Assembly: GCF_000026545.1 (NCBI RefSeq)
Contig: NC_011601.1
Direction: 5' to 3' (one strand)
Length of the DNA: 64,000 nt
Origin: Escherichia coli O127:H6 str. E2348/69
GTDB taxonomy: Bacteria; Pseudomonadota; Gammaproteobacteria; Enterobacterales; Enterobacteriaceae
The notes under the pieces: model-generated
Told to the model about the DNA's origin: nothing
The model's database searches: none
The model's input: the letters and a program-made list of their open reading frames with translations, nothing else
Program-made: the position numbers and the translations under genes
Part shown: piece by piece, positions 30,741 through 32,165 of the stretch
Position numbering within the stretch: the stretch's first letter is position 1
How the letters are laid out: the number at the start of each line of letters is the position of its first letter

Positions 30741-32108
30741 TTACAGACTTCTGGACGGTTGCGCAGCTCTTACAACATGTGGTTGATCTTCTGCGGCGTC
30801 TTCCAGCGCACTTAAATCACGGTCTTTCACTTCTGGCATTTTCAGCGCAGAGATTAAACCAATCACAGAATATGCCATGATCATAATGGCGATCGGATAC
30901 CAGGATTCCGTCATGGTGCAGAAAATCCCCGCCAGGATAGGACCAAAACCGGAAGCGATAAGACCACCAATTTCTTTAGAAATAGCCATTCGGGTAAAGC
31001 GGTTTTTACAGCCGAACATTTCTGCCATGGTAATGTTTTCCAGAGCAAATAATCCAAGCACCGCACAGTTATGAATCACAATCAGTGCAACCATAATGGT
31101 GCTCGGGGCATAGCTTTTATCTACGATGATAGAAAGCATTGGCCATGCCAGCACAATCGCAGAGGTATTCATAATAATATACGGGATCCGGCGACCAATT
31201 TTATCGGATAACCAACCAAGGAACGGAATGGTCATAAAGCCGAGAATCGAACTGATCATCAATGCATCTGTTGGAATTGCTTTGTTAAACAATAACGTCT
31301 GCACTAAATAGCCTGCAAGGAAAGTCTGAATTAAACCTGAGTTACCAGCCTGACCAAAACGCAGTCCTGTTGCCAGCCAGAAGGATTTGCTCTGGAACAT
31401 GCTACCAGCAGGTGCAGGTTTTGCTGTCGGTTGGTTGCTGTCGTTAACCTTCTCAAAGACCGGGCTTTCTTTCAGATTCATACGCAACCAGATAGCAAAG
31501 ACCATCACGACAACGCTCGCCAGGAAAGGTATACGCCATCCCCACGCCAGCAGTTCCTCTTTACTGAGAATGAAGAACATAAAGGCCCAGATTGCCGTTG
31601 CGCTCAAGGTTCCGCAGTTAGTTCCCATAGCCACAAATGAGGAGATAATTCCGCGCTTACCTTTTGGCGCATATTCCGCCAGCATCGTACCGGCACCGGA
31701 AATTTCCGCACCTGCACCCAACCCCTGAATAATACGAAGCGTCACCAGCAAGATGGGTGCAAAAACACCAATCTGTGCATAGGTCGGTAACACACCAATT
31801 AAGGTGGTACAGATCCCCATCATGGTGATGGTAATAAAGAGCACTTTTTTACGCCCTATTCTGTCGCCCATTTTGCCGAAAATAAATGCTCCGACAATAC
31901 GTGCCACATAACCTGCACCATAGGTTCCCATTGCCAGAATTAACGCCATTGCCGTTGATGATTCAGGAAAAAATATTTCATGAAACACTAACGCTGCGCC
32001 GAGCGAATATAACTGGAAGTCCATAAATTCAAGCGCAGTGCCCAACCATCCCGATACTGCTGCTTTCACCAAATCCTTAGTACTTCTTTCGTGTTTTTCT
32101 ATTGTCAT
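30741..32108 (-). CDS. ydfJ: MFS metabolite:H+ symporter (intact)
   Basis: 455-aa MFS protein matching YdfJ over full length. Confidence 0.85.
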   Translation of the reverse strand: MTIEKHERSTKDLVKAAVSGWLGTALEFMDFQLYSLGAALVFHEIFFPESSTAMALILAMGTYGAGYVARIVGAFIFGKMGDRIGRKKVLFITITMMGICTTLIGVLPTYAQIGVFAPILLVTLRIIQGLGAGAEISGAGTMLAEYAPKGKRGIISSFVAMGTNCGTLSATAIWAFMFFILSKEELLAWGWRIPFLASVVVMVFAIWLRMNLKESPVFEKVNDSNQPTAKPAPAGSMFQSKSFWLATGLRFGQAGNSGLIQTFLAGYLVQTLLFNKAIPTDALMISSILGFMTIPFLGWLSDKIGRRIPYIIMNTSAIVLAWPMLSIIVDKSYAPSTIMVALIVIHNCAVLGLFALENITMAEMFGCKNRFTRMAISKEIGGLIASGFGPILAGIFCTMTESWYPIAIMIMAYSVIGLISALKMPEVKDRDLSALEDAAEDQPHVVRAAQPSRSL

Positions 32109-32165
32109 AATGGTTATCTCTAAAAAAGAGGTAAGATGCGTACTACTTACTCGCCGTTATTGGTA

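Follow-up and report, generated by a model that had tools for sequence, protein, structure and literature searches.

An unoccupied Qin-type prophage attachment site within an intact ydfJ gene of Escherichia coli O127:H6 E2348/69

The rsp cluster and the intact ydfJ gene

The window, i.e. the whole stretch of 64,000 nucleotides analysed here from the chromosome of E. coli O127:H6 str. E2348/69 (NC_011601.1), carries the genes rspA, rspB, ydfJ and ydfI in this order, all on the minus strand. Gene names were taken from the RefSeq chromosome NZ_CP059840.2 of this enteropathogenic strain, which is 100% identical to the window in reverse orientation. The cluster and its surroundings comprise the following features:

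33197..34411, minus strand: rspA, first gene of the cluster, enolase-superfamily (mandelate racemase/MLE) dehydratase-like product (Pfam MR_MLE_N, MR_MLE_C; annotation)
32166..33185, minus strand: rspB, Zn-dependent dehydrogenase gene directly upstream of ydfJ (Pfam ADH_N, ADH_zinc_N; annotation)
32109..32165, minus strand: rspB-ydfJ spacer, 57 bp (sequence and terminator scan)
30741..32108, minus strand: ydfJ, intact gene for a 455-aa MHS-family MFS transporter, with the attachment site inside (ORF, Pfam MFS_1, TIGR00883, RefSeq WP_000151242.1)
30707..30734, minus strand: terminator-like hairpin, 12 pairs and a T run, directly 3' of the ydfJ stop (consensus scan only)
29192..30652, minus strand: ydfI, mannitol-dehydrogenase-family oxidoreductase gene downstream of ydfJ (Pfam Mannitol_dh, Mannitol_dh_C; annotation)
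28090..28776, plus strand: rspR, transcriptional regulator of the rsp cluster, by annotation only

An earlier reading of the letters alone (the sequence-only reading) had described ydfJ as encoding a full-length 455-aa MFS transporter that ends up only 57 bp away from the rspB stop, and both statements agree with what was measured. The ORF at 30741..32108 encodes a protein with the N-terminus MTIEKHERST, for which RefSeq gives the product name 'MHS family MFS transporter YdfJ' and which matches Pfam MFS_1 with an E value of 2e-37. Its match to the NCBIfam model TIGR00883 'metabolite/H+ symporter' reaches 462.9 bits (cut-off 443.45) and aligns residues 23-418 with profile positions 1-400; the score above the curated cut-off and the coverage from profile position 1 place YdfJ in the MHS family, and none of the equivalog models in the profile search reached its cut-off. 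The 455-aa YdfJ of E2348/69 is predicted to be a functional transporter. The annotated rspB stop lies at 32166 and the intervening spacer measures exactly 57 bp.

Between rspB and ydfJ, the window was found to hold no phage DNA, scar or repeat, and a consensus terminator scan of 32109..32165 returned no terminator-like sites. Co-transcription of rspB and ydfJ would be consistent with this short, terminator-less spacing. A microarray study of E2348/69 reported that Ler represses rspA, rspB and ydfI together (PMC3891560), a joint response consistent with common regulation. A literature search on the biochemical function of the rspA-rspB-ydfJ-ydfI cluster yielded nothing usable. In strain GZ2408C, an IS1 copy occupies the rspB-ydfJ spacer (6292..6989 of its locus) while the phage site is otherwise empty, so that the spacer can also be broken up without involvement of the phage site.

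Several further features of the window were recorded in passing. A complete Lamassu anti-phage operon occupies 1259..4663 on the plus strand, and its genes are labelled by RefSeq as 'ABC-three component system' proteins and an AAA ATPase:

1259..2359, plus strand: LmuA (PADLOC E 2e-133)
2349..2834, plus strand: LmuC (PADLOC E 2e-54)
2792..4663, plus strand: LmuB (PADLOC E 2e-176)

It is followed by a decayed retron (5529..6574), in which an Rfam retron msr RNA (5529..5593, plus strand, 80 bits) is accompanied by a reverse transcriptase ORF that is cut short (5585/5660..6061) and covers no more of the PADLOC RT_I-A profile than positions 1-123 out of 308. An integrase fragment at about 6428..6574 adjoins hipA (6682..8004, minus strand), and together the operon, retron and integrase fragment look like a small degraded defence islet beside hipBA. 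Between dgcZ and dcp (~24820..25028), ydeI and ydeJ, which are intact in O157:H7, have been reduced to 90 bp and 81 bp, respectively, by a lineage-specific deletion. Additionally, yneK (~17482..17583) is a 102-bp fragment annotated as partial, the O157:H7 copy being full-length with an internal stop, and the Hfq-binding sRNA STnc560 (23451..23664, minus strand) gives an ordinary full-length match of 282 bits that overlaps mgtS/mgtT on the opposite strand.

Qin within ydfJ in K-12 and the four attachment sites

In MG1655, the feature 'cryptic prophage Qin' extends over 20.5 kb (1632277..1652745), with ydfJ on one side and ynfP followed by rspB on the other. The K-12 YdfJ (b1543) has 427 aa that correspond to residues 29-455 of the window protein, starting at M29 and identical at 426/427 positions. 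The small ynfP gene (b4534, 36 aa) translates into MTIEKHERSTKDLVKAAVSGWLGTALEFMDF and then KSHAC, i.e. YdfJ residues 1-31 followed by five phage-encoded residues. The sequence-only statement that Qin disrupts ydfJ in K-12 is thereby borne out, the gene being split into ynfP (31 codons) and the 427-aa remainder from M29. The accompanying statement that Qin lies between rspB and ydfJ holds with a refinement: Qin does separate the two genes in MG1655, but it is inserted inside ydfJ codons 28-31 and not in the intergenic spacer. Since a hydropathy scan for TM1 of YdfJ was uninformative, the N-terminal loss was judged from coverage of the TIGR00883 profile, on which the K-12 remainder begins at position 7, so that only about six conserved profile positions are gone with the N-terminal tail, a loss that need not inactivate the remainder. 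RefSeq now annotates the remainder as an ordinary CDS rather than a pseudogene, as would be expected if K-12 ydfJ were in fact intact and Qin were located elsewhere; however, this CDS covers 427 aa from M29 of the 455, and the lost N-terminus is found as ynfP 20.5 kb away with Qin in between, which leaves that view with practically no chance of being right.

E2348/69, as had been proposed, shows the uninterrupted locus, with one continuous 455-aa ORF, the 57-bp spacer and no mobile DNA between the flanks. The empty Qin site and the intact ydfJ are confirmed as a correct, ordinary and already published observation (PMC6379469, PMC3032704, PMC2608844). According to a figure legend in the first of these papers, Qin enters ydfJ by site-specific integration at its 5' end, and the gene loses its promoter and 28 N-terminal codons (PMC6379469); the second paper names ydfJ as the gene into which Qin is inserted (PMC3032704), and the third lists a lambda-like prophage 'between ydfJ and rspB' (PMC2608844).

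When the window was aligned to both K-12 Qin junctions, as the sequence-only reading had suggested, the alignments broke at one shared core, which sets attB at 32016..32026. The relevant elements inside ydfJ are:

32016..32026: attB common core GAAGTCCATAA, in ydfJ codons F28-M29-D30-F31 (K-12 alignment, four-site comparison)
32020..32026: TCCATAA, predicted overlap region (G kept in attL and A in attR; the right limit is the attB/attP difference at 32027)

The four-site comparison, with the core set between its left and right arms, reads as follows:

attB, window (core 32016..32026): aactg GAAGTCCATAA attcaagc
attB, empty site of strain GZ2408C: aactg GAAATCCATAA attcaagc
attP, HannyBb: gactctt GAAATCCATAA ttcacagg
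attL, K-12: aactg GAAATCCATAA ttcacagg
attR, K-12: gactctt GAAATCCATAA attcaagc

The K-12 attL and attR correspond exactly to the two reciprocal products of recombination between attP and attB, and attP equals the left arm of attR, the core and the right arm of attL base for base. Likewise, the left flank of the window is the bacterial arm of attL and its right flank the bacterial arm of attR, as compared with K-12, LF82, STEC299, an O170:H18 strain and ATCC 25922. The window thus has the gene, the codons, the 11-bp core and collinear flanks in common with the K-12 Qin (Kim) site (attL 1632277, attR 1652745) and differs from it in being unoccupied and in carrying G instead of A at core position 4. 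This G at 32019, where the phage has A, is synonymous (D30, GAC/GAT), and it leaves the window core GAAGTCCATAA identical to the attP core GAAATCCATAA at 10/11 positions, with the 7 bp TCCATAA fully identical.

Cognate phages and the predicted point of strand exchange

The phage partner was traced from an intact integrase that lies beside attR in E. coli O78 strain 3. This 426-aa enzyme contains Arm-DNA-bind_2 (E 1.6e-23) and Phage_integrase (E 2.2e-18) domains, and the neighbouring gene upstream encodes a DUF1233 excisionase (E 1.6e-31); the N-terminal arm-binding domain, the C-terminal catalytic domain and the adjacent excisionase identify it as a tyrosine integrase of the lambda type. Four free phages, HannyBb, PhiR42_1, mEp460_ev081 and Tritos, encode integrases with 99% identity to this enzyme, and they have in common the attP DNA and the gene order xis-int-attP-ydfK-pin, a circular permutation of the Qin ends. 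In mEp460_ev081 and HannyBb, attP is located 38 nt past int. The attP core and arms of these four phages are exactly those present at attL and attR of K-12 and other lysogens, which makes them the phage partners of the site, while none of their DNA occurs in the window.

Integration of the lambda type at gene ends, as for Rac in ttcA and e14 in icd, likewise involves an arm-binding tyrosine integrase, a short core and a target within a coding region. In a review, e14 is described as duplicating the icd 3' end, which leaves a 163-bp pseudo-icd copy, and Rac as altering only the N-terminus of TtcA (PMC6379469). Unlike e14 and Rac, a Qin-type phage brings no replacement for the ydfJ 5' end, and ydfJ consequently loses 28 codons together with its upstream operon context.

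The G variant of the window also occurs in lysogens. A left arm of the G type identical to that of the window was found in 48 natural lysogens, although these 48 genomes do not represent 48 independent events. The four that were inspected (LF82, STEC299, the O170:H18 strain and ATCC 25922) contain Qin-like prophages that are full-length (44-48 kb) and have both int and xis intact, but differ in their immunity and cargo modules and present three phage-arm variants at attR. In 4/4 of these lysogens, attL retains G and attR carries A, and over all genomes surveyed attL with G was found in 48 and attR with G in none, which places strand exchange to the right of 32019; the first right-hand difference between attB and attP, at 32027, places it to the left of that position and leaves TCCATAA (32020..32026) as the predicted overlap region. 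A length of 7 bp is typical of the overlap regions used by lambda-family integrases. The centre of the core is further flanked by an imperfect inverted repeat, CTGGAA ... TTCAAG (32013..32018 and 32028..32033), read directly from the sequence, which may represent a pair of putative core-type Int binding sites.

A separate variant is seen in LF82, in which the attR core (48277..48287 of its locus) reads GAAATGCATAA, with a change of C to G. Its interpretation as a distinct attP type was rejected, as the sequence is confined, within the 5,426 genomes, to the two assemblies of LF82. The point change is thus specific to this strain, and excision of the LF82 prophage might be impaired by it.

Occupancy and history of the site

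The state of the site was surveyed in 5,426 complete E. coli genomes using a 300-bp junction probe and exact 40-mer probes (attB-G, attB-A, attL-G, attR-G and attL-A). With the 300-bp probe, an uninterrupted junction was detected in 2,008/5,426 genomes (~37%), and a prophage junction is present in about 3,173/5,426. A review gives a frequency of 48% among 638 strains for Qin at the ydfJ locus (PMC6379469). The exact 40-mers returned the following counts:

Empty site, A-type core: 1,733 genomes
Empty site, G-type core (the window type): 270 genomes
attL with A: 3,125 genomes
attL with G: 48 genomes (including LF82 and ATCC 25922)
attR with G: 0 genomes

In O157:H7 (Rafaela_II, locus 21417 onward), a lambdoid prophage at ydfJ has a differing attL phage arm (ttcatagatg...), and three DUF1076 genes, which are taken here to be genes for NleG-type effectors, lie beside the junction. 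O157:H7 genomes present only the ydfJ-side junction, the ynfP/rspB-side sequence having no match in the record, which suggests that sequence has been deleted at the far end.

Taken together, the segment 32016..32026 in ydfJ codons 28-31 is almost certainly an unoccupied, competent attB for lambdoid phages of the Qin/mEp460 type, its competence being read from natural lysogens. Such phages encode an excisionase and a tyrosine integrase that resembles that of lambda and has an N-terminal domain for arm binding, and their attP lies 38 nt downstream of int. Their Int recombines attP with attB over the common core, with strand exchange predicted within TCCATAA. Lysogeny at the E2348/69 site would then yield attL as ...aactgGAAGTCCATAAttcacagg and attR as ...gactcttGAAATCCATAAattcaagc. 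Integration would cut ydfJ in two, so that codons 1-31 would remain beside rspB and the upstream promoter, as ynfP does in K-12, and the other 427 codons and ydfI would be displaced by the length of the prophage, some 20 kb in K-12, where Qin is decayed, and some 44-48 kb in the full-length cases examined. With no phage at the site, E2348/69 keeps rspA-rspB-ydfJ(-ydfI) together on one strand as an uninterrupted cluster, and its transporter is full-length.

The mismatch of G at 32019 with the attP core raises the question of whether the empty state is explained by resistance to integration, i.e. by a poor or dead substrate, and the lower occupancy of G-type sites (48/318, 15%) than of A-type sites (3,125/4,858, 64%) would fit such a view, with the reservation that strain relatedness confounds the comparison. 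This explanation is nevertheless very improbable: prophages occupy precisely this G-type site in 48 genomes and represent at least three phage-arm variants, the 7-bp segment of exchange does not include the G, and the gap in occupancy is confounded by phylogeny, given that G-type strains form a narrow set of relatives and that many A-type strains (e.g. ST131) are empty too. As the main cause of the empty site, the G variant was rejected, since the empty state extends to 1,733 sites with a perfect core, and prophages are present at 48 sites of the G type. A weaker role, in which the G/A polymorphism at core position 4, besides mapping the exchange by the Qin/mEp460 Int to TCCATAA, may lower integration through its position in the putative left core-type Int site and contribute to the low G-type occupancy (15% vs 64%), is also considered quite unlikely.

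A different question is whether the competent attB of E2348/69 has always been empty. The site might once have been occupied and the prophage later precisely excised, which would make E2348/69 a cured rather than an ancestrally empty strain. Here, the same G-type flank hosts prophages with intact, apparently excision-proficient int and xis in LF82, ATCC 25922 and others, and with such prophages in related G-type strains, gain and loss within the lineage are plausible. Precise excision regenerates attB, so that the sequence does not separate a site that was never occupied from one that was cured; excision by Int/Xis is scarless, no positive sign of curing was seen and the sequence of the site recurs unchanged at 270 other empty G-type sites. 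A cured history is considered unlikely, and either history leaves the identity of the site as an unoccupied attB unchanged.

The empty Qin site is of little importance beyond correct annotation. The base-level set of attB, attP, attL and attR and the 7-bp segment of exchange are tidy additions rather than discoveries, neither being new in kind, and are useful for prophage boundary calling and the design of junction PCRs. The uninterrupted rspA-rspB-ydfJ-ydfI cluster is absent from K-12 and from about 58% of complete E. coli genomes, and the function of this cluster is better studied in a strain such as E2348/69 than in K-12.
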